Shown here in pieces: positions 801 through 64,000 of a DNA stretch of 64,000 bases. The notes below the pieces were generated by a model, which was not told the DNA's origin, did not search any database, and saw nothing but the letters and a program-made list of their open reading frames with translations. Source of the DNA: Macrostomum lignano (Eukaryota); contig NIVC01000860.1 in the NCBI GenBank assembly GCA_002269645.1, positions 362,462-426,461 on the forward strand. Direction: 5' to 3'. The position numbers were made by a program, and so were the translations under genes. Numbering within the stretch: the first letter of the stretch is position 1; every line of letters starts with the position of its first letter.

Positions 801-8877
<8,077 letters not shown>

Positions 8878-9555: not shown

Positions 9556-10931
9556 GAGATGAGACCAAGCGGGATCTCACGGTCGTTCAGTAAGCCACAA
9601 AGAGTCCATTTCAATTATGAGATGAGACCAAGCGGGATCTCAAGATCGTTCAGTAAGCCACAAAGAGTCCATTTCAATTATGAGATGAGACCAAGCGGGA
9701 TCTCAAGATCGTTCAGTAAGCCACAAAGAGTCCATTTCAATTATGAGATGAGACCAAGCGGGATCTCAAGGTCGTTCAGTAAGCCACAAAGAGTCCATTT
9801 CAATTATGAGATGAGACCAAGCGGGATCTCAAGGTCGTTCAGTAAGCCACAAAGAGTCCATTTCAATTATGAGATGAGACCAAGCGGGATCTCACGGTCG
9901 TTCAGTAAGCCACAAAGAGTCCATTTCAATTATGAGATGAGACCAAGCGGGATCTCACGGTCATTCAGTAAGCAACAAAGAGTCCATTTCAATTATGAGA
10001 TGAGACCAAGCGGGATCTCAAGGTCGTTCAGTAAGCCACAAAGAGTCCATTTCAATTATGAGATGAGACCAAGCGGGATCTCAAGATCGTTCAGTAAGCC
10101 ACAAAGAGTCCATTTCAATTATGAGATGAGACCAAGCGGAATCTCACGGTCGTTCAGTAAGCCACAAAGAGTCCATTTCAATTATGAGATGAGACCAAGC
10201 GGAATCTCACGGTCGTTCAGTAAGCCACAAAGAGTCCATTTCAATTATGAGATGAGACCAAGCGGAATCTCACGGTCGTTCAGTAAGCCACAAAGAGTCC
10301 ATTTCAATTATGAGATGAGACCAAGCGGGATCTCAAGATCGTTCAGTAAGCCACAAAGAGTCCATTTCAATTATGAGATGAGACCAAGCGGGATCTCAAG
10401 ATCGTTCAGTAAGCCACAAAGAGTCCATTTCAATTATGAGATGAGACCAAGCGGGATCTCAAGGTCGTTCAGTAAGCCACAAAGAGTCCATTTCAATTAT
10501 GAGATGAGACCAAGCGGGATCTCAAGATCGTTCAGTAAGCCACAAAGAGTCCATTTCAATTATGAGATGAGACCAAGCGGGATCTCACGGTCGTTCAGTA
10601 AGCCACAAAGAGTCCATTTCAATTATGAGATGAGACCAAGCGGGATCTCAAGGTCGTTCAGTAAGCCACAAAGAGTCCATTTCAATTATGAGATGAGACC
10701 AAGCGGGATCTCAAGGTCGTTCAGTAAGCCACAAAGAGTCCATTTCAATTATGAGATGAGACCAAGCGGGATCTCAAGGTCGTTCAGTAAGCCACAAATA
10801 GTCCATTTAAATTATGAGATGAGACCAAGCGGGATCTCAAGGTCGTTCAGTAAGCCACAAAGAGTCCATTTGAATTATGAGATGAGACCAAGCGGGATCT
10901 CAAGGTCGTTCAGTAAGCCACAAAGAGTCCA
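9556..10931. repeat. 63-bp tandem array, about 22 highly homogeneous copies
   Basis: Unit GAGATGAGACCAAGCGGGATCTCAAGGTCGTTCAGTAAGCCACAAAGAGTCCATTTCAATTAT; no spacers. Confidence 0.97.
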
Positions 10932-31000: not shown

Positions 31001-34000
31001 GGGCATCCTATAGACATTCAAGCGCACCATAGACACATTTGGGCATCCTATAGATATTCAGGCACACCATAGACACATTTGGGCACCCTATAGACATACA
31101 TGTATTTTAAGGCACCCGATAGACATTTTTAGGCACCCTATAGACATATTTTTAGGCACTTTATAGACACATTTGGGCACTCTATAGACACATTTAGGCA
31201 CACCAGACACATTTGGACACCTTAGAAACACATTTTTAGGCACACTATAGACACATTTGGGCACCCTATAGACCCTATAGACACATAGTTAAGTCGTGGA
31301 CCCATTTTAGCCCCATATAAAAGTTACTCCCCCACTACGGACCCCAATAAGACCCACCGAAGTGATTATAAATCAAAAGCATAGCAATTTCTAAAACAAC
31401 TCATCCAGACCTTAGTAGACGGATTGCTAAACGAGCAGAAGCAGCGCAGCAGGGCTCGCATCCGATCTTTTGAACCCAGACTGTAGGGCACCAATGAGGC
31501 CTTGAAGTGCCGTTCCACTGCTATGCGATCCCAGTTGCTCTCCTAGAAGGCAGGCGACATGTTTAAAAACGATAAATTATATTATTTTCGATACATATCG
31601 GCAACGTTTTTTATTTACTTATCTTAAAGCCTTTTACTATTTTACATTACTCAAATCTCAACTTTTTAATCTCTATTCACTATAGTCATACACATTTTCT
31701 CGTAAATCTATCACAATAAATCCAATTACAAAAATTTCTTTTTTTGATGCTTTAACTCCATCATAGGGATACAGAACTATTTCACTAATCCCAATAATCC
31801 CACTAAGTTCCCCGCCGAAGTCAAATTATCTCACCTCAGAAATCCCACCATCTCCACGCCCCTTAATCCCATCTCCCTAATTCCCACACCCCTATTTCTA
31901 TCTTCTTAATCCTATTTACCTATTCCTATCTTCCTAATACCATCTTCTTAACCGAATATACATAATGCCATCTCGCAAATCCAATCTCCCTAATCGCATC
32001 TTGCAAATCTAATCCCCCTAATCACATCTCGCAAATCCCATCTTCCTAATCACATCTCGCAAATCCCATCTTCCAAATCACATCTCGCTAATCCATTTCC
32101 CTAATCACATCACGCAAATCCAATCTCCCTAATCACATCTCGCAAATCCCATCTTCCTAATCACATCTCGCAAATCCCATCTTCCTAATCACATCTCGCT
32201 AATCCATTTCCCTAATCACATCACGCAAATCCAATCTCCCTAATCACATCTCGCAAATCCCATCTTCCAAATCACATCTCGCTAATCCATTTCCCTAATC
32301 ACATCTCGCTAATCCATTTCCCTAATCACATCTCGCAAATCCCATTTCCCTAATCACATCACGCAAATCCAATCTCCCTAATCACATCTCACAAATCCCA
32401 TCTTCCTAATCACATCTCGCAAATCCCATCTTCCTAATCACATCTCGCTAATCCATTTCCCTAATCACATCTCGCAAATCACATCTCGCAAATCCCATCT
32501 CCCTAATCGCATCTCGCTAATCACATCTGGCTAATTCCATCTCCCTAATCACATCTCCTTAATCACATCTCCTTAATCACATCTCACAAATCCCATCTTC
32601 CTAATCACATCTCGCAAATCCCATCTTCCTAATCACATCTCGCTAATCCATTTCCCTAATCACATCTCGCAAATCCCATCTCCCTAATCGCATCTCGCTA
32701 ATCACATCTGGCTAATTCCATCTCCCTAATCACATCTCCTTAATCACATCTCCTTAATCACATCTCGAAAATCCCATCTCCATAATTCCCAAACCCCTAT
32801 TCCTATCTTCCTAATCCAAAGCAATCTAATCTCTTACCTGGAAGTACATGTGCATGATAGCATTAACGCACTGGGACAGCCTAGACCACACAGTTTTATT
32901 GCCAGACTTAATCAAATCAGCATTCATAATGTAGGTTTTATAGATGCTGGCGAGGCTGGTAAGGGCAGCCCGGCGCACGCCTTGGTCTTTGTCGCGAGAC
33001 CGATCAATTAAAATCGATAGATAGTCCTCCGGCAGGGACTCCAGCTCCTGCTTGGCCAGTTCAACTACTTGTCCAATCACGCAGTCCCTGATGTCCACGT
33101 GGGCGTCAATACTTCGACCGCGGAGCAGCGCAACCAGGGTGTCACGCAGGTCGGGATTCGTTCGCAGCAGCTGAGGGACGGAGGCCACGCAGATTCGCCT
33201 GACCTCCAAGCTGACGTCAACAAATCTACCGATGAAAGCTTTCCACAGATCCGGCTGAAGCTGCACCAGATTGCCGGTGGTCTCGCTGAATAGCTTCGCC
33301 ATAAGTCGGCAGGCCCGCTTCCGTTCGCGCTCGTGATTTGACAGCAGCTTCAGCTCAAGCATGGGCAGCACGGGACTCACGAACACGTGATCAATCTTGT
33401 GCAGCTCATAGATTAATGAGAATACTAATTCGTCTCTGATGCCAGACTGTTGAGACTTGAGCTGCGGCTGCTCATCGGAGTCCTCGGACGAGAGCACGAG
33501 CATATCCTGCAGCATCTGGTGAATCATCTGATCCAGGTGCTTCACAGTTTCCTGCACAATGATAAGTAAGGGTAGGTAAGTAGTAGATTGTGAAACAAGC
33601 TGGTTGGCAACCAACATTTACTTGCCAGGGGCATTAAAACTTGTTGGCAGGGAACCAAAACCGGTTCCCGTTGCCAGGGCGATTTAAACTCGTAGCCAAT
33701 GACACTAGAACCAGTTGCTAATGACACTAGAACCAGTTGCTAATGACACTAGAACCAGTTGCTAATGACACTAGAACCAGTTGCTAATGACACTAGAACC
33801 GGTTGCTAATGACACTAGAGCCGGTTGCTAATGACACTAGAACCGGTTGCTAATGACACTAGAGCCGGTTGCTAATGACACTAGAACCAGTTGCTAATGA
33901 CACTACAATCGGTTGCTAATGACACTAGAACCAGTTGCTAATGCCACTAGAACCGGTTGCTAATGACACTAGAACCGGTTGCTAATGACACTAGAGCCGG

Positions 34001-37000
34001 TTGCTAATGACACTAGAACCGGTTGCTAATGACACTAGAACCAGTTGCTAATGACACTAGAGCCGGTTGCTAATGACACTAGAACCGGTTGCTAATGACA
34101 CTAGAGCCGGTTGCTAATGACACTAGAACCGGTTGCTAACGACACTTGAACCGGTTGCTTAGGACACTAGAACAGGTTGCTAATAACACTACAACCGGTT
34201 GCTAATGACACTAGAACAGGTTACTAATGACACTACAACCGGTCGCTAATGACACTTGAACCGGTTGCTAATGACACTAGAACAGGTTGCTAATGACACT
34301 ACAATCGGTTGCTAATGACACTAGAGCCGGTTGCTTAGGACACCAGAACCGGTTACTTAGGACACCAGAACTGGTTGCTTAGGACACTAGAACCGGTTGC
34401 TTAGGACACCAGAACTGGTTGCTAATGACACTAGAACCGGTTGCTTAGGACACTAGAACCGGTTGCTTAGGACACTAGAACCGGTTGCTAATGACACTAG
34501 AACCGGTCGCTAATGACACTAGAGCCGGTTGCAAATGACACTAGAACCGGTTGCTTAGGACACTAGAACCGTTTGCTAATGACACTAGAACCGGTTGCTT
34601 AGGACACCAGAACCGGTTGCTTAGGACACCAGAGCTGGTTGCTTAGGACACTAGAATCGTTTGCTAATGACACTAGAACCGGTTGCTTAGGACACCAGAA
34701 CCGGTTGCTTAGGACACCAGAACCGGTTGCTTAGGACACCAGAACTGGTTGCTTAGGACACTAGAACCGTTTGCTAATGACACTAGAACCGGTTGCTTAG
34801 GACACCAGAACCGGTTGCTTAGGACACCAGAACTGGTTGCTTAGGACACTAGAACCGGTTGCTTAGGACACCAGAACCGGTTGCTAATGACACTAGAACC
34901 GGTTGCTAATGACACCAGAACCAGTTGCTTAGGACACCAGAACTGGTTGCTAGTGAAACCAGAACCGGTTGCTTAGGACACCAGAACCGGTTGCTTAGGA
35001 CAGCAGAACCGGTTGCTAGTGACACCAGAACCGGTTGCTTAGGACACTAGAACCGGTTGCTTAGGACACTAGAACCGGTTGCTAATGACACTAGAACCAG
35101 TTGCTAATGACACTAGAACCGGTTGCTAATGACACTAGAACCGGTTGCTAATGACACTACAATCGGTTGCTAATGACACTAGAACCGGTTGCTAATGACA
35201 CTACAATCGGTTGCTAATGACACTAGAGCCGGTTACTAATGACACTACAACCGGTCGCTAATGAAACTTGAACCGGTTGCTAATGACACTTGAACCGGTT
35301 GCTAATGACACTAGAACCAGTTGCTAATGACACTTGAACCGGTTGCTTAGGACACTAGAACCGGTTGCTAATGACACTTGAACCGGTTGCTAATGACACT
35401 TGAACCGGTTGCTAATGACACTAGAACCGGTTGCTAATGACACTAGAACCAGTTGCTAATGACACTAGAACCGGTTGCTTAGGACACTTGAACCGGTTGC
35501 TAATGACACTTGAACCGGTTGCTAATGACACTAGAACCAGTTGCTAATGACACTACAATCGGTTGCTAATGACACTAGAACCAGTTGCTAATGACACTAG
35601 AACCAGTTGCTAATGACACTTGAACCGGTTGCTAATGACACTACAACCGGTCGCTAATGACACTTGAACCGGTTGCTAAAGACACTACAATCGGTTGCTA
35701 ATGACACTAGAACCAGTTGCTAATGACACTACAATCGGTTGCTAATGACACTAGAACCAGTTGCTAATGACACTAGAACCAGTTGCTAATGACACTTGAA
35801 CCGGTTGCTAAAGACACTACAATCGGTTGCTAATGACACTAGAACCAGTTGCTAATAACACTACAATCGGTTGCTAATGACACTTGAACCGGTCGCTAAT
35901 GACACTACAATCGGTTGCTTAGGACACTAGAACCGGTTGCTAAAGACACTACAATCGGTTGCTAATGACACTAGAACCAGTTGCTAATGACACTAGAACC
36001 AGTTGCTAATGACACTTGAACCGGTTGCTAAAGACACTACAATCGGTTGCTAATGACACTAGAACCAGTTGCTAAAGACACTACAATCGGTTGCTTAGGA
36101 CACTAGAACCGGTTGCTAATGACACTAGAACCGGTCGCTAATGACACTAGAGCCGGTTGCAAATGACACTAGAACCGGTTGCTAATGACACTAGAGCCGG
36201 TTGCCAGGGACTAGAGAACCTACAGAATTGCTTGCTTAGAACCTCCAAGCTAAATTACCAGTAGAGATTAGAAATTTTACCCGCAAAAGCCGCGAAGCCA
36301 GCTGATAGCAGCGGGGCTCCTGCATCTTCTTCGGTTGAATAATGAACTCGAGCACGTATTTGACGGTGTCAGAGCCTAACAGTTCCATCTCCTCGTCAAC
36401 AACTTTAACAGCGGCATCTAACAGATAGCGAACGCAATCGTCTGGCGTGTCCTCCCAGCTCCAGATGTCCACAGTGCGCACGATGGTGAACAGGAATCGG
36501 AAGAACTCAAAGCAGGCCCGCTTGCCATCCGGATTGGTGTGGCACACGGAGATGAAATCGGTTTGTATCAGGCTCTGACAGAAGTAGGACAGGTTCTGGT
36601 AGGCCACGTCCTCTTTCGATTGGATCTGCGGTGCGGCGATCAGGGGGAAAGGTGTCAGAAAGAGGATTAAGTTTGTCAGATTAGGACAGTAAGACAGTGG
36701 GGTGCCAGATAAGACAGTGGGATGTCAGGAAAGACAGCGGGATGTCAGATAAGACAGTGGGATGTCAGGAAAGACAGCGGGATGTCAGATAAGACAGTGG
36801 GATGTCAGATAAGACAGTGAGATGTCAGGAAAGACAGTGGGACGTCAGATAAGACAGTGGGATGTCAGGAAAGACAGTGGAGTGTCAGATAAGACAGTGG
36901 GATGTCAGGAAAGACAGCGGGATGTCAGATAAGACAGTGGGATGTCAGATAAGACAGTGAGATGTCAGGAAAGACAGTGGGACGTCAGATAAGACAGTGG

Positions 37001-50987: not shown

Positions 50988-56346
<5,359 letters not shown>

Positions 56347-56364: not shown

Positions 56365-56949
56365 GGGAGGAGGGAGCGGAGAGGGGAGCGGAGAGGGGAG
56401 CGGAGAGGGGAGCGGAGAGGGGAGCGGAGAGGGGAGCGGAGAGGGGAGCGGAGAGGGGAGCGGAGAGGGGAGCGGAGAGGGGAGCGGAGAGGGGAGCGGA
56501 GAGGGGAGCGGAGAGGGGAGCGCAGAGGGAGCGCAGAGGGGAGCGGAGAGGGGAGCGGAGAGGGGAGCGGAGAGAGGAGCGGAGAGGGGAGCGGAGAGGG
56601 GAGCGGAGAGGGAGCGGAGAGGGGAGCGGAGAGGGGAGCGGATATGAGGGAAGAGAAAGGAGCTGAAAAGGGAGCGGAGACGGGAACGGAAACGGGAGGA
56701 GAGAGAGGGGAACTGGGAGGAGAACTGAGAGGGGAAGTGAGAGGGGAAGTGACAGGGGAAGTGACAGGGGAAGTGACAGGGGAAGTGACAGGGGAAGTGA
56801 GAGGGGAAGTGACAGGGGAAGTGAGAGGGGAAGTGAGAGGGTGAGTGACAGGGGAAGTGAGAGGGGAAGTGAGAGGGTAAGTGAGAGGGGAAGTGAGAGG
56901 GTAAGTGAGAGGGGAAGTGAGAGGGGAAGTGACAGGGGAAGTGACAGGG
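56365..56949. repeat. 12-bp purine-rich minisatellites GAGAGGGGAGCG and GAGGGGAAGTGA
   Basis: Tandem units; interrupted at 56950 by the LTR. Confidence 0.92.
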
Positions 56950-58024
56950 TGTAGAGTGTTCTACCTCCCGTAAGAAGACATAAAAGTGTTAATGTACTAC
57001 TCACACATTTTATTTAGTAGTAAATTGAAGAGCATGAATAAAGGTATGCTTTGAACTATAAGTATATTCGGACTAACCAATAGGAAGAGAGAGACCTCGA
57101 GCATGCTAATTTTAGAAATCACCCAATCACGTGCGACCAACAACTGTCAATTCAAACCCCACCTTCAAGTCATCATTTTGTTTGCACTCGGGTTGCACCC
57201 GGATGAACCAATCAAAGTCTACCAGCTACGGTAACCAATCATGCGCTTTTACAGTAGACTAGTTGCGCAACTTTCTACCCTGTCATGCTTGACAGCCACC
57301 GAATCGTGACCCTTTGACATTTGCGAAGACAGTGATGTACGACCTCGAGAGAGGTCTGAACGCCTATAAATACAAGTGGTCCGGAACGGACCCGGAGCCA
57401 CAGAATCTCCAAGAGAGAGAAGCTCCGAAGAGGAAGCTCTAGTGAAGCCTTCCTGAAGAAACTCGCGTCGTGGACGAGTTCTTGCGGTAAGCCTTACTCA
57501 TTTGCGCCCGTTGGTTGAGACGTCTCGCTCAAGTCTATTGAGACTTGAGTTTATTTGAGTCTGCTGAGACTCTTGAGTCTGTTTAGACTCCACTGGTTGC
57601 AGTCTCCATAAGGACTGCCCCTGATAGATCTTAGAAGACTATCAGTGGTTTCCGGAGCCATACCTAGAGTGCATAGAGGCACTACTAGAAGGAGTAGGCT
57701 TATATTAAACCGCAGTTTGGCGCAGGGATCCCCATTGTTAATTTGGAAGCTTCCGATTGGTCCGAACTACAGATACCGGCCGGCAAGAAGTCAGAGGACA
57801 AAGGAGATAACGGACCAGATCAACTGTTACCAGGCGCCTAAACTTCCTGAAGGACAGGAAAGTTACTGATCGCGATACTACGGACGAGGATTATTACGAG
57901 AGCTCTCATTTAAGGACTCAAAGGTAATTGAATACCTTCATTTGATTACTGGGTTGCCTAGCTACAGAGCTAGAAGTGATTGTTCCTTGATTACAGTTGA
58001 GGACTGGTAATAAGGAACACATCA
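56950..58024 (+). repeat. 5' LTR (about 1075 bp, TG...CA)
   Basis: Begins TGTAGAG at the abrupt end of the minisatellite and ends ACACATCA 2 nt before a TGG-starting PBS. An alternative end at 57644 is less well supported. The partner LTR is not in the window. Confidence 0.65.
57077..57372 (+). promoter_or_regulatory. LTR U3 promoter: four CCAAT boxes and a TATA box
   Basis: CCAAT at 57077, 57123, 57208 and 57235; TATAAATA at 57365-57372. Confidence 0.65.
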
Positions 58025-58026
58025 AT

Positions 58027-58040
58027 TGGTGATCTCGCCC
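58027..58040 (+). other. Primer-binding site TGGTGATCTCGCCC
   Basis: Complementary to a tRNA 3' end ...GGGCGAGATCA-CCA, which resembles tRNA-Val 3' ends by analogy; tRNA identity not verified. Confidence 0.6.
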
Positions 58041-58718
58041 TCTCGGCACTACTCAAACTTTTGAGTAATAGCCTGGCCAAGCTATTGTAAAGTGACGAAA
58101 GAGCGACTTCATTAATTTTGCGCGCACGTGTTAAAGGTAACACTTTTCGACACTTTTCGATTTTTGTACGATTTGAAACTCGAGTAAAAGTTTAGATATA
58201 CAGGCTTGAGTACCTGTCAATTTTGAGTAACGTTTGAGCACGCGTGTTAAATTTTTGTTTTTAACGAGCTCGAGCAAGAGTAAACCTTAAACAAAACCGA
58301 AAACAACGTCCGGTACACTGAAAACAAACCGAAAAATAATCAATACACACTAAAACAAAACCGAAATTAAAAACACTTGACGAAAGCTAAAACAAACCGA
58401 AATTTGATAAAACGTGACAAGGCACGTCACGAAGACAAGAAAGGCCTTTGAAAAAAGCAAGAAGCAGCTGCACTTCAAGCACTTTAAAGATACACTTTGC
58501 GGACGCCGCATAAGTGCGAAAATCAGCCAGCGAATAAGAGGTCCGAAAAAGCAGCCAAAAGCCGAATTCCGTTCAAGGTCAGACATAACAAATTGAGGTG
58601 TCAAAAGCGCGCGAGACAATCAGTTACAACCGAAGTTTATTTCGAAAGAAACACCACACTGGAAGATCCATTACAAATCGACCCAGACCTAGAGCTACCG
58701 TTCTATCCCATCAACAAC

Positions 58719-59700
58719 ATGGCGCGGCGCAATCCAACGGTGCACAGAGATATCAAAGAGACAGTTGGCACCTTTTCTATGGAAAAGACTTTAACACCTT
58801 TGTTGATCATTTTGACCTGGTATGTAGGGAATACAACCTACAAAATCCAGAAAAAGCGCAACTGTTGCCACCACTCCTCCAAGGCACTGCACGAGAGATT
58901 TATGGTAAACTAGATGCGGCAACACAGCAAAACTACCCAGCATTAATCATTCAACTGCGCGCGCATTTCAACCGCTGTGGCACAAACAGATCAGTGCTAC
59001 TGCACAAGTTGCATAACAGAAGGATGCAGCCAACCGAATCCTTCCTGACCTTTGTGGACGACATCCGTCAGATAATTAAGGCACTGCATCAGCCAACACT
59101 GCCAGCTGCAGACCAACCACCTCTGGGTGCGGCAGAATTAGCCGCTAGAGAGCGACAGCGATTGATGGATCGCGAACAAAATCTGATTCTGCACGTAATA
59201 AACAATGCACAGCCGTCACTCCGAGATAGACTTCTACGCGAAAACATTGAAACCGAGGAAGACCTTTTACGGTGCGGAATGCAGTGGGAAGCAAGCGCTC
59301 CACTAATGACAACCGGCAACACAGAAGTGCAGAAATGACACAGCAACTAAACAAACTGATGCAACATCAAACAGCCGTTATCGCCGAACAAAAAAGACGA
59401 AATGAACGAGCCCAAGCCAGATGCTATTACTGTGGACGAGAAGGACACTACCAAATTAATTGTCCTCATCGGTCAACAAGAAATGATATGCCGCGACAGC
59501 CATTCAACAGACGGAAGCCGCAAAAACCATGGCAACAGCATCAAAATTGGCAGCAGCAAAACACGAAACGCTTAGGAAACAATGGCTACAGACCGCGAAA
59601 CACCAGATACATGCCCAAGCAACCAACGCAAGCGATGCAACGATATGCAAACGCCATCACGTACACACCGGAAAGCGAACAGCAAGAGCAGCAAGTCTTC
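58719..59700 (+). CDS. gag: Gag (capsid-like region plus CCHC zinc knuckle), with frameshifts near 58775 and about 59310
   Basis: MARRNPTVHRDIKETVGTF / GKDFNTFVDHFDLVC..KAQLLPPLLQGTAREIY..NYPALIIQLRAHF..LHNRRMQPTESFLTFVDDIR; CYYCGREGHYQINC at 59422-59463. Confidence 0.85.
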
Positions 59701-60351
59701 ACGATAGACGACTTGGAAATGGACTTCACTATCAATGAAATCGACTGGCTCGATGTGGAGAGCAGCGAAAAGACAAAAAACATCAGCATGGTCGAAATGA
59801 AAGAAACTAACATTGACAGCGAAGAAGAAAAGACAGAAGTGAGCACAGAAAAAACATTGCCAAGCGACATCAGTGAAAGAAAAGAAGAAACAAACAAAGG
59901 CAACGACAAAGAACTGGCAACGAAGGATGACAACGAAAGAAGCAACGACGGAAATGCAGAGATGGAAGAAGAACAGCAAGAAGAAAGCAGCGATCACGAT
60001 TATGAGATGCACAATGATGCTGATGACAACCGAGCCGCCGACAAAGAACATGAAGACGGAAGGCACAAAGGAATGGAAGAAAGAAATCTAAGCTCCGACA
60101 GCGATCAATGCTACGAGATCCGCTATAAACGAAATGGTGAAGCCTACATCCAAACGGTCGACTACAAGGCCGAAGTGAGGTACCGCAGACAATGGAGTGA
60201 CACAACTACAACATCGGAAGAAAGCAAGGAAGAAAATGATGAAGACGACAAGCAGCGGAACGAATCGGATGCCTTGCGCTCGGAAACGCCAATGGAACAA
60301 GAGGAAGAATACGATGCGGACGCAGAAGATAACGAATGGCAGCCGCAGCCA

Positions 60352-62298
60352 ATGCCAGCAAAGACAACGGCAACGTTCAGAAAATGGCGATTCTGGATAT
60401 TCTGGATCATCATAATACTACTGACGGCAGTAGTCACCAAAGCAACAGCAATGGAGAAACCAATGATATGTCCAACGGATGCGCATATCCAACCGATGAT
60501 CTACAAGATACCAACCGACATCAAATGCAGCTACTTCAAGACAAATCAGACGAAGCCAAAGAAGATCACAATTGATCTCTACAAAGCTAACATCAAGAAG
60601 CATCGACAACTCGGAATAGTGTGCTTTAGAGACAAGCACCTAGTGGAAAAAGTTTGGCGAGGACAGTGGAACAGAATTCGATTTTGGCAACACGAACTAC
60701 ATGTGTCGCACGCTGAATGTCTACAATGGAACCAAACACTGTTCTCAAAGGATGGTCAGCTAGAACCGGATGAGAAAGTGGGGGAGGCACAACTTTACCG
60801 AACGAAGAACTCAGCAAACGGACGATATGTACACTTTTCGGAAGCATGGACTAACTACATGACACGAAACAGTTACCTAATCAGGAATATTCCATTCTAC
60901 CACAATCCTTTTGAAAAAATGGAGTCGCTACAACTGCAATTAAGTGACTGCCGATACAGCAAAGGATGGTGTCCAACGCCGATACTGCGGAATGAGGAAC
61001 TATACAGCTTACCGTTGAGTCCAACATATCATCAAGACTATCGATGGCAAATTATACGCAGAGGCGACTCACGATATGAAGAACCATCTAAGTCACGACA
61101 ATACTTCTTCGCGTGGGAAGTTGAGCCGGAAATTGACTGCAAGCTTCAAAAGTATCACACAGTTGAAGGAGGTCTACTGTCAAACACGTTTTTGGCAAAG
61201 TCAGGAGACTTGGCACTGACGTTTCAAAAGAAACCAGTCGAGCAAAAACTGAAATGCAAGGATACAGACAAGACACTATTCATCTCGGAACAAGAGATAC
61301 CAGTCTACGTAAAAGAGACGACAAACAAACCTTTCTGGCGATCATCAACGGAACGTATCAACAGCAGGAACAACAGAACAGACGACGACGAGACATCGAA
61401 CGTCCCAAACTGGTGTCAAACCGACTACTGTCAGCAAAGATAACGGCTTTGGATCAAATCTACACAACCAGTTAAACCACTTGCATCGAACACTGGTCCA
61501 GCTAACTTGCAAAATGCACGCAATCAACTTAAATTATGCCAGACAAAACTACTATGTCAACCCTACGATGACTTTTCGTAAAATCACCGGAATGACGAAC
61601 GTTTTGGCAGTTCCAATATACGAGCATCTGTTGATATACAAGTGCACGCCGATACAGCACTTTAACATCTTGCCGTCGAACACGTCAACAACCTGCTACG
61701 ATAAGCCAAGGATTGAAGCGTTCTACGAAGGAAAACGAATTCAAGGATTCTTGGACACGGTACACAACATCATCGTTGGCACCGCAATACGAGACCTTGC
61801 ACCACGGCAGCAAACTACTATCAACTGGACAATGCACTACACGTCATCAAAACAACTGGAACGACAGCAAACATCACAGAACCGGAAGTAATCGTCGACG
61901 AAAACTACGACATGGAGGATTTGAAAATCCGATTCAACAGAACGAAGTATACGCCATTCGCCGATATCCAACTTGACGAGATAACACCAGGATGGACGAT
62001 CAACGACTTCTTGCAAGCGTTCATCACCCAACGCAAGATGATTCACCAGCTGTTCACAAGAAAGGACAAAGGAACCGGGACAGGAAGATTTCCCGTCCTT
62101 GTTTCAATGGACAGCGCCATCAAATCATTTTGGACAAACAGCTTCTGGGAGCTGCTCAATGGAAGAGGCAGTCTCTATCAAGGATTCATCTTCTACGGTG
62201 CTTGCATTGTGTGGATTGTCACGGCAATCTTCATCATTTCGTCGATCGTACGGTGCTTCAGTCAAACTTGTCCAAGAGCTAAGAAGACAGTAATGCCA
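60352..62298 (+). CDS. env: Env-like type I membrane glycoprotein, probably class III viral fusogen-like; frameshifted near 61330, 61470 and 61795
   Basis: Signal-like MPAKTTATFRKWRFWIFWIIIILLTAVVTKATA; Cys-rich ectodomain including DCRYSKGWCP and TCYDKP; several N-x-S/T sequons; polybasic RRRR at 61380-61391; TM segment FIFYGACIVWIVTAIFIISSIV at about 62184-62250. Confidence 0.8.
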
Positions 62299-62521
62299 TA
62301 ATGCAAAGAACGACAACGGAAGGCGACAACAGTTTAGAACTAACAGAAACTGCACATCGTGAGGTTCAAGGGCAACCGACACTAGCAACGCGGCTATATC
62401 CATCGATTCCGACAACACCAACGGCACCAAGAATACAACCACCAACTATCAAGCAGAACAGCAAGACCCAAAATGGCCAGAGAACTACGTATGTACTCTA
62501 CACGCCGAAATTGGCAAAGCA

Positions 62522-64000
62522 ATGGCTCAAGTGGTAATCAACAATCTACCATGTCGAGCGCTACTCGACTCCGGCAGCTCCATCACAGTTATATCAAAAC
62601 AACTGTGCAACAAGCTACGACTTGCTCTACGGCCAGCAACAATCGCAGTTGCAGGAGCAGGAGGACATTCGCTAAACATTCTGGGAAAAGCCGACATTGA
62701 TTTAAGAATCGCTAATAAACATTTGACAGTTCCAACGTACGTCATCGACAGACTCCCAAACCAGGACGTTATTGTTGGCATCGACACGTTCAAGCAGCTT
62801 CGACTACCATTGACCTTCGACTTCAATAAGCAAACGTTCAAGATCGACTCGGTAGAACAACCATTGATCAACCAGATCTCGAGTACTACCAAAAGTAACA
62901 TTGCAACAAGATGTCTCATCCAACCGGAGAGCGCCTGCTGGATAAAGGCAAAGGCAACTAACGCAACGGAGGAAGCAATGATATTCGACCCAAACAGAAG
63001 AGTCACGGCTAAACACCAAATTATAATGCCTACGGCACTAGTGCTGGTTGCAAAAGATAAACAGCTGCCAGTACAAATATTCAACCCGAACACAGAAACG
63101 GTTCATCTACGACAAGGAATGTGCATCGGTCATCTCAACACCCAAGCATCGGTTATGCTGATTGAGCAAGCGACTCCACGACTAACAGAGGAAGAATTTC
63201 AAAAGAAGATCAATTTGGATGACAGCCCGATTACGGAACAGCAAAAGAGGAAAGTTCGACAGCTGTTGTGGAAGTACAACGACGCTTTCTGCCACCATGA
63301 CTACGACATCGGACGAGCAAGGACATCAAACAGGAAATCAAACTTCTGCCGCACACGGAACCAATTCAGTGCAAACCGTACCCGATCGCCAAGCATCTGC
63401 AACAGCACTTCGATGAGATTATCGACAAAATGCTGAAACACGGCATCATCAGCAAAGCCATTTCAGCATACTCCATCACCATGTCTCTTGGTGCAAAAGA
63501 AGGAGACTAACGAAAGACGACTCGTATGTGACTTCAGACTACTGAACAAGTACATACCGACGGATCAGCAAAGCCTACGAAGATCTCCGAACTACTAGCA
63601 AAGCTCAACACGGCAAAATTGTTCACAGTGTTCGACCTACGTCATGGATTTTGGCAAATTGAAATCGAGAAAGAGTCACGACAGTACACGGCTTTAAAAC
63701 CTACAATGGACAAGTATACGAGTACAATCGATCGCCGATGGGACTCAGCAACAGCCCAGCAACGATGCCGACTAACAGCATACATGCTTGCAGGATGCAC
63801 GAACCTGTTGCACTATGTTGACGACATCTTGGCCTACGGAGAAGACTTCAACGACTCTATGAAGCTACGGAGAAGGCCCTAGCGCTCATTCAACGCCAAG
63901 GTCTTAAGCTGCAACCGACGATGCAAATTTCTTCCGAGACAACGTACGTTACCTAGGACACCAAGTGACAGCCAAAGGATTCTCACCGACCCAGACAACG
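62522..64000 (+). CDS. pol: Pol: aspartic protease and reverse transcriptase (partial, frameshifted)
   Basis: RALLDSGSSITVIS (DSG at 62567), VIVGIDTF flap-distal motif, EPIQCKPYP, RLVCDFRLLN, FDLRHGFWQI, YVDD at 63814-63825. Confidence 0.93.

Follow-up and report, generated by a model that had tools for sequence, protein, structure and literature searches.

A Ty3/gypsy element of Macrostomum lignano with a predicted class III glycoprotein between gag and pol and a RING-finger ORF 3' of integrase

Errantiviruses with an HSV/gB-type envelope and the gene order GAG-ENV-POL have been described in Nematoda, Bryozoa, and Platyhelminthes (Chary & Hayashi, PMC13524379), in a set that includes the nematode NERVs of Sacco et al. 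2022 (J Gen Virol 103:1739). PMC13524379 reports that GAG-ENV-POL elements are not monophyletic and argues for an ancient acquisition of env followed by rearrangement. One entry in its Supplementary file 1, Platyhelminthes_Rhabditophora_Mlig_errantivirus_2, has an HSV/gB-type env and 16 listed copies, with LTRs of 863–864 bp and an LTR-to-LTR spacing of 9,727. The words "polyprotein," "single ORF," "fused," and "RING" are absent from the main text, and the 30 of 58 places in Supplementary file 2 that were covered include Schmidtea and no Macrostomum ectodomain (PMC13524379). Literature searches of open-access text returned no further description of the gag-env-pol order. An env between gag and pol is already known and is not new here; a preliminary description of the present locus had taken as its premise that env-bearing Metaviridae carry env 3' of pol, which the published elements contradict. 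In the NERVs, gag, env, pro, and pol reportedly form one continuous ORF, the env is Nyamiviridae-like, and the additional ORFs are said to encode a helicase or a small hypothetical protein rather than a RING protein.

The window, a 64,000-nucleotide stretch of M. lignano contig NIVC01000860.1, ends within a Ty3/gypsy element on the + strand. The window end is also the contig end, and only other copies show RNase H, integrase, and the 3' LTR. The element has the following features in the window:

56946–56949, +, left target site duplication (TSD) AGGG, in a minisatellite within an intron of a host PDE1-like gene
56950–58024, +, 5' LTR, TG...CA, 1,075 bp, matching the 3' LTRs of 10 other copies
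58027–58040, +, primer-binding site (PBS), complementary over 14 nt to the tRNA-Val(AAC) 3' end
58719–59421, +, Gag capsid region and start of the long ORF, with two frameshifts in the window copy
59422–59463, +, CCHC zinc knuckle (nucleocapsid), Pfam zf-CCHC, E 0.0013
about 59690–60340, +, length-variable acidic spacer in frame with gag and env, 33% D/E over 217 aa
60385–60450, +, internal signal/anchor, Kyte-Doolittle 19-mer 2.19, flanked by basic residues toward Gag and ending in A-x-A
60451–62181, +, Cys-rich ectodomain of a predicted class III fusion glycoprotein, frameshifted in the window copy
61380–61391, +, furin-type site RRRR, present in 25/25 copies
62182–62250, +, env TM anchor (stop-transfer), hydropathy 2.43
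62486–62840, +, aspartic protease, DSG at 62567, Pfam Asp_protease_2, E 2.7e-11
63330–64000, +, reverse transcriptase (RT), truncated where the contig ends, with YVDD at 63814, Pfam RVT_1, E 1.7e-7

Pfam and hydropathy place the knuckle (59422), acidic spacer, signal, Cys-rich ectodomain, TM, protease (62567), and RT (63814) where the preliminary description had put them. All lie on the + strand, as it had also stated, with no LTR copy inside 58041–64000 and no internal repeat in 59501–62600.

The element is a genuine, recently active, young, multi-copy, virus-like LTR retrotransposon. The 5'/3' LTR pairs of the 10 other copies are 99.2%–100% identical, and 4-bp TSDs were found in 7/10 and 5/5 LTR pairs in two sets. 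The same insertion site was recovered on another contig (G000:C1363), where AGGG flanks the element on both sides, the upstream flank is 99% identical to the window, and the RT runs on into RNase H-integrase. The exon upstream of the element has PDE1B as its best match (E 5.7e-25). Of the 11 matches in a PBS pattern search, nine were near-identical genes resembling tRNAs, and the control gave 0; ARAGORN identified one of the PBS-matching genes as tRNA-Val(aac). The purine-rich stretch (PPT) 5' of the 3' LTR is present and short. Pol domains in another copy follow the Pfam order RVT_1, RT_RNaseH, Integrase_H2C2, rve, and the best solved match for Pol is Ty3 Gag-Pol (E 1.3e-93), ahead of CaMV and retroviruses. 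LTRs, PBS, PPT, short TSD, and PR-RT-RH-IN order, with the RT placed by similarity ranking, assign the element at the sequence level to Ty3/gypsy (Metaviridae). The capsid assignment comes from a weak match between a profile of homologous polyproteins and the dArc capsid (E 0.004). Bel/Pao elements feature a Peptidase_A17-type RNase H region and multiple Gag knuckles. Placement in Bel/Pao (Belpaoviridae) was rejected, as the element has no Peptidase_A17 Pfam match, a single knuckle, and only sub-threshold DUF1759.

The envelope region is a fixed part of the family. It is colinear and in place in 37/37 scored genomic copies. Its base composition is A-rich, the same as that of gag and pol. The modal distance between each pair of neighboring landmarks is a multiple of three, and each landmark-to-landmark interval is open in 7–16 of 20 copies, including 16/20 for ATG to zinc knuckle and 14/20 for TM to protease. 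From ATG to YVDD, three of 20 close copies are open and the remaining 17 are broken somewhere between. The window copy is itself interrupted, with mostly private frame breaks near 58780, 59330, 61300, 61450, 61800, and 62290 and several in RT; multiple near-identical copies have uninterrupted ORFs. At 12 loci, two of which belong to a family 65%/71% identical, one frame of 2,370–2,538 codons holds both env and integrase matches, and the family is therefore predicted to encode a single Gag-Env-Pol polyprotein of roughly 2,450 codons. The same order, sought elsewhere, occurs in other lineages, where P0003 (2,852 aa; Pol 37% identical to that of the element) and P0016 (2,311 aa) are single knuckle-env-TM-PR-RT proteins. 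The region after integrase was inspected for a second env, and none of the 15 3' ends read has an env-sized ORF between integrase and the 3' LTR.

The glycoprotein is predicted to have a viral class III (gB/nyamivirus-like) fusogen fold. A structural model built for the open ectodomain of another copy from a 10-row alignment (mean pLDDT 66.6, pTM 0.42) matched KSHV gB with a Foldseek E value of 2.5e-21 and Midway nyavirus G with 9.7e-27, and the PDB rows listed were all gB; whole-chain TM-scores to gB were only 0.21–0.35. A single-sequence AlphaFold prediction (pLDDT 28.5) was not usable. By sequence, the ectodomain has a weak match to Pfam PF24664 (E 0.0024) and a best Atlas match of 0.91, P0001 was the sole match to env in word-index protein searches, and no fusogen was matched when the PDB was searched with the ectodomain or its profile. 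Class III fusogens (nyamivirus G, herpesvirus gB, chuvirus G; Pfam PF24664) share the predicted fold and element order, including a furin site that precedes a long central helix; they differ in being only 9%–14% identical in sequence, and the env of this element is embedded in a retroelement polyprotein. A signal/anchor-like segment also occurs in five of nine homologous proteins scanned, R-x-R-R motifs resembling the furin site occur in P0003 and P0016, and the env cysteines are conserved among lineages 22%–29% identical. The two env halves have dN/dS values of 0.087 and 0.059, and Gag capsid 0.024; each dN/dS value in this study comes from a single pair of copies. The env range (0.06–0.09, one copy pair) indicates purifying selection. 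Of the retrovirus-like lineage proposed in the preliminary description, a fixed, selected glycoprotein with a predicted class III fold stands, and the implied novelty does not, the order having been published. Env may have been captured at the Gag/protease junction, as that description proposed, or may have reached it from a site 3' of pol.

With the published GAG-ENV-POL HSV/gB-type errantiviruses, the element shares an env between gag and pol with none after integrase, a Ty3/gypsy pol, and a class III ectodomain between two hydrophobic segments. Mlig_errantivirus_2 has a 12-nt primer site identical to that of the element, and its LTR length and spacing compare with 858–866 bp and 9,716–9,755 in four copies of a sister subfamily found here, the alignment of which drops out at the acidic spacer. 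Going by primer site, LTR length, and spacing, the sister subfamily may correspond to Mlig_errantivirus_2. The window subfamily differs from that entry in LTR length (about 1,075 bp) and spacing (about 9,630). The primer tRNA is given as "others" in PMC13524379 and is tRNA-Val in the present analysis.

Only a small RING-finger gene at the far end of the element looks undescribed. This ORF lies directly 3' of integrase and before the 3' LTR, beyond the contig end, in 15/15 3' ends, and also occurs in a sister family with a 71% identical integrase. A one-off host-gene capture in L024 was ruled out, as all 15 3' ends carry the RING segment. The ORF has an N-terminal myristoylation motif (MGNxxS) followed by a C3HC4-type RING, and the full form is a 222-aa protein with two RINGs and a helical tail; the window-type subfamily has expanded with a 70-aa ORF that lacks the last Cys of the RING. 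Values of dN/dS are 0.17–0.22, and diverged RING paralogues were compared by coordinates only. Pfam returned sub-threshold Sina RING matches only, Atlas matches were all <0.9, and a word-index database search with the 222-aa protein found no match. Searches of open-access text gave no account of an LTR retrotransposon with such a RING accessory gene, and "RING" is likewise absent from the main text of PMC5408684. The extra ORF would set the element apart from the NERVs as described above. The most likely role of the protein, which would be bound to membranes, is that of an accessory ubiquitin ligase or a helper in budding, dispensable in cis. In its motifs, MGNxxS followed by a C3HC4-type RING, it may resemble viral RING E3 ligases and the Z matrix protein of arenaviruses; the two RINGs and helical tail of the full form differ from these.

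The best explanation, which we consider probable, is that the element belongs with the published GAG-ENV-POL errantiviruses of HSV/gB type, with a single membrane-threaded polyprotein, enveloped particles, class III fusion, and a RING accessory. Topology, processing, particle formation, and cell entry are here projected from sequence and structural models. Gag would be synthesized in the cytosol, and the internal signal would thread the ectodomain into the ER, where cleavage by signal peptidase would leave Gag transiently membrane-anchored. The ectodomain would be glycosylated and cleaved at RRRR. The TM helix would bring the chain back to the cytosol, so that Pol would hang from the Env tail and be packaged with Env, not as a Gag-Pol fusion. 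The element protease would then release capsid, nucleocapsid, RT, and integrase, and particles with trimeric Env may bud and enter other cells, probably germline, via class III fusion.

Alternatives were weighed against this reading. A one-off nested insertion or a mis-join between 59.7 and 62.5 kb has a negligible probability and is already refuted: the assembly is indel-rich (25 substitutions plus 26 gaps between the same-site copy and the window in 6,089 nt) and the contig terminates inside the element, but env is present in every scored copy, contigs from two independent runs span 59379–60498 gap-free, two contigs run from the TM into the frame of the protease, as far as 62463, no internal termini surround env, and P0003 and P0016 repeat the order. 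The same anatomy could instead be expressed under regulation, with splicing or recoding giving Gag alone or an Env-less Gag-Pol and the full polyprotein a minor product, which we judge unlikely but deserving of weight. Retroelements usually need excess Gag, and the spacer contains two AAAAAAC heptamers (59775 and 59849). Production of Gag, Env, and Pol in equal amounts would be unusual, so that a spliced or recoded product may exist unseen. Against it, none of the 15 joints listed (of 21) connects gag to protease across env, a weak test on contigs whose RNA status was guessed, and no AGGT(A/G)AG donor occurs in 58041–62600, also a weak test.

It is less probable still that Env has no role in entry and is kept as a membrane assembly anchor and as a frame needed for Pol, with movement being intracellular. 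In a single ORF, any frameshift or stop within env abolishes Pol as well, and this by itself would preserve the frame; an internally deleted form that joins the LTR end to 61213 was found in three of four runs. Frame dependence nevertheless leaves the amino-acid constraint on env unexplained and does not account for the invariant furin site, and the cysteines are kept across the diverged lineages. Beyond the errantivirus reading preferred here, we tentatively entertain, at rather less than even chance, an RNA-virus-like "complex" retroelement, in which a single polyprotein threaded through the membrane would comprise Gag, a nyamivirus-like fusogen, and Pol, the last packaged while attached to the Env tail. 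Fast-evolving, duplicating, myristoylated RING genes would then occupy the position where env normally lies and would act either as an arenavirus-Z-like matrix/budding protein for a matrix-less Gag or in ubiquitin-ligase counter-defence.

The gene order, being published, adds little alone, and what remains of interest concerns mechanism. With a young family present in many copies in one genome, the processing and packaging of a single Gag-Env-Pol chain become testable, matters that PMC13524379 does not address, and the analysis names the primer tRNA, tRNA-Val. The conserved RING accessory gene may serve an invertebrate endogenous retrovirus in budding or in counter-defence.

The preliminary description had proposed an LTR retrotransposon with an env between gag and pol, all on one strand, and all of its landmarks were found on the + strand of the window.

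56950-58024, upstream of gag: LTR, TG...CA, 1,075 bp
58027 (start): primer site
59422, + strand: zinc knuckle
between zinc knuckle 59422 and hydrophobic segment 60385, + strand: acidic spacer
60385-60450, + strand: hydrophobic segment
between hydrophobic segment and TM segment, + strand: Cys-rich region
62182-62250, + strand: TM segment
62567, + strand: protease DSG
63814, + strand: RT YVDD

The primer site pairs over 14 nt with the genome's own tRNA-Val(AAC) genes. The element is uninterrupted, with no LTR copy or repeat within its internal region, and the A-rich bias of env is that of gag and pol. Downstream, as read in other copies, Pol has the order RT-RNase H-integrase, with Ty3 the nearest among solved structures; a second env was looked for 3′ of integrase and none was present. 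Several frameshifts interrupt the window copy, and its sequence stops at the contig end. Upstream of it lie exons of a Ca/calmodulin-dependent PDE1-like gene (~54377-56171), which occurs at four assembly loci (contigs C860, C1363, C714, and C529), with the element at both loci examined. The window also contains a DNA-transposon-like 357-nt inverted repeat (3232-3588 and 4947-5303; 97% identity, 1.36 kb apart) and a long 22-bp minisatellite array (~33500-36000).

The genome was searched using 59400-63400 as the query, and 37 of 102 candidates were scored. Colinearity extends over the whole query in 23 (the window and 22 others at 96-99%) and from the spacer onward in 14 (89-98%). None of the 37 lacks env, making it a trait of the family. 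Among 20 close copies, intervals are open between ATG and knuckle in 16, knuckle and signal in 11, across the ectodomain in 7, between TM and protease in 14, between protease and RT in 16, and over the whole span in 3. Gaps in close copies are mostly single-base and private, and every modal landmark distance in the 20 is a multiple of three. Comparison of the window with the same insertion on C1363 shows 25 substitutions and 26 gaps, which suggests indels introduced in assembly, and at several window breaks the contigs of all four sequencing runs differ from the window in length. A mis-join around env had been considered; contigs of separate studies bridge 59379-60498 and 61384-62463, none covering the whole stretch. 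Integration was recent, with LTR pairs 99.2-100% identical in 15/15 copies, and 4-bp TSDs flank 7 of 10 pairs (of the other three, one has a mismatch and two were not parsed) and, by eye, 5/5 further pairs. Support for a genuine element is strong.

Several variant copies were observed. Two copies on different contigs (L036/L026 and L038/L028) share a 3′ flank start, one without a matching TSD, possibly reflecting mis-assembly or a recombinant. Copies on C2447, C2930, and other contigs have 93-94% DNA identity to the window over spacer-env-protease, and their env proteins match the window-type one at 99-100% identity; together with LTRs of window-type copies that range from 84% to 99.8%, this suggests that subfamilies recombine frequently. 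A form joining 58024 to 61213, without gag and half of env, is probably a non-autonomous derivative and occurs in contigs of three of the four runs, including one guessed to be DNA.

Because env and integrase matches share one 2,370-2,538-codon frame at 12 loci (from 79 env and 103 integrase matches), the family encodes one Gag-Env-Pol polyprotein. A search of 1.84 billion representatives yielded ten relatives, and gene order is the same in every one of sufficient length. The knuckle-env-TM-PR-RT series is continuous in database proteins P0003 (2,852 aa, labelled Macrostomum lignano) and P0016 (2,311 aa), and the knuckle is joined to env in P0001, P0004, and P0007. Sacco et al. 2022 are reported to have found gag, env, pro, and pol in one uninterrupted ORF, with an env resembling that of Nyamiviridae. 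Splicing or recoding may still yield a further product; env was skipped in 0 of the 15 joints listed of 21, on contigs of uncertain type. Two further entries (P0005 and P0015) are a 1,009-aa protein with this env domain from a genome bin labelled 'Kangiellaceae bacterium', likely animal retroelement DNA inside a bacterial bin.

Sequence evidence for the env class is weak (PF24664, E 0.0024, below cut-off; Atlas score 0.91, recognition low), and its fold class comes from a structure model of the open ectodomain of another copy (10-row alignment, pLDDT 66.6, pTM 0.42). Herpesvirus gB alone appears among the PDB matches listed by Foldseek (best E 2.5e-21), and top matches in a viral structure library are the G proteins of Midway nyavirus (9.7e-27) and Beihai rhabdo-like virus 3. 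TM-scores over the whole chain are low, at 0.15-0.40, which is the expectation when a protein has several domains and its hinges are uncertain. A furin motif, RRRR, precedes the long central helix in 25/25 copies. Env is under constraint, with dN/dS between two subfamilies of 0.087 and 0.059 for its halves versus 0.024 for capsid (one pair each).

The first of the two hydrophobic segments has basic residues on its Gag side and an A-x-A end. By standard membrane-protein biogenesis, it would act as an internal signal, and the second segment would stop transfer, so that Gag and Pol would lie on the cytosolic side and flank an ectodomain in the lumen. Alphavirus and flavivirus polyproteins have a comparable topology. 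Pol would be packaged via the Env tail and then freed by the element's own protease, and particles would gain entry to other cells through class III fusion.

Just past the integrase stop, 15/15 of the 3′ ends read have an ORF with an MGNAxS start, of the myristoylation type, followed by a C3HC4-like RING.

L022-L031 and L047-L051 (genomic copies), between integrase stop and 3′ LTR, e.g., L024:2822-3490 and 3545-4183: RING ORFs, outside the window

The window-type subfamily has a degenerate ORF of 70 aa, the 864-bp-LTR subfamily one of 124 aa with two RINGs, and L024-type copies one of 222 aa plus a 212-aa paralogue. The gene is accessory because the window-type subfamily spread with the degenerate version. 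By coordinates, integrase is followed by a RING match no more than 500 nt away in 55/55 listed close copies, 12/14 in the 70-72% family, and 0/8 copies of the 37-40% family. This count entered 77 of 103 integrase rows (mostly partial matches dropped, two ends extrapolated ~30 nt) and 90 of 150 RING rows, with 150 of 240 RING candidates scored. RING genes diverge faster between families (35-42% identity versus 71% for integrase) and have dN/dS of 0.17-0.22. Protein database and Atlas searches found no homologue of the ORF, and searches of open-access text, including PMC13524379 and PMC5408684, turned up no LTR element described as carrying a RING accessory gene. Clustered 3′ ends with repeated integrase-end and RING modules were seen at L052 (G000:C2121:62300-66300, four RING ORFs) and on C87, C1130, and C3033, possibly a tandem amplification or silencing-type cluster.

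The gag-env-pol layout, put forward as potentially undescribed, is already published. Chary & Hayashi (PMC13524379) report errantiviruses of Nematoda, Bryozoa, and Platyhelminthes with an HSV/gB-type env and GAG-ENV-POL order, find them not monophyletic, and credit the first report of the order, in nematodes, to Sacco et al. 2022. Their catalogue row for Mlig_errantivirus_2 gives an 863-864-bp LTR, 9,727-bp spacing, and a 12-nt primer site identical to the one here. Four of five sister-subfamily copies have comparable LTRs (858-866 bp) and spacing (9,716-9,755 bp); the fifth has a window-type LTR. Because primer site, LTR length, and spacing agree, the family is probably already catalogued. 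Modest interest remains in the topology of the polyprotein, the tRNA-Val primer, and the RING accessory gene.
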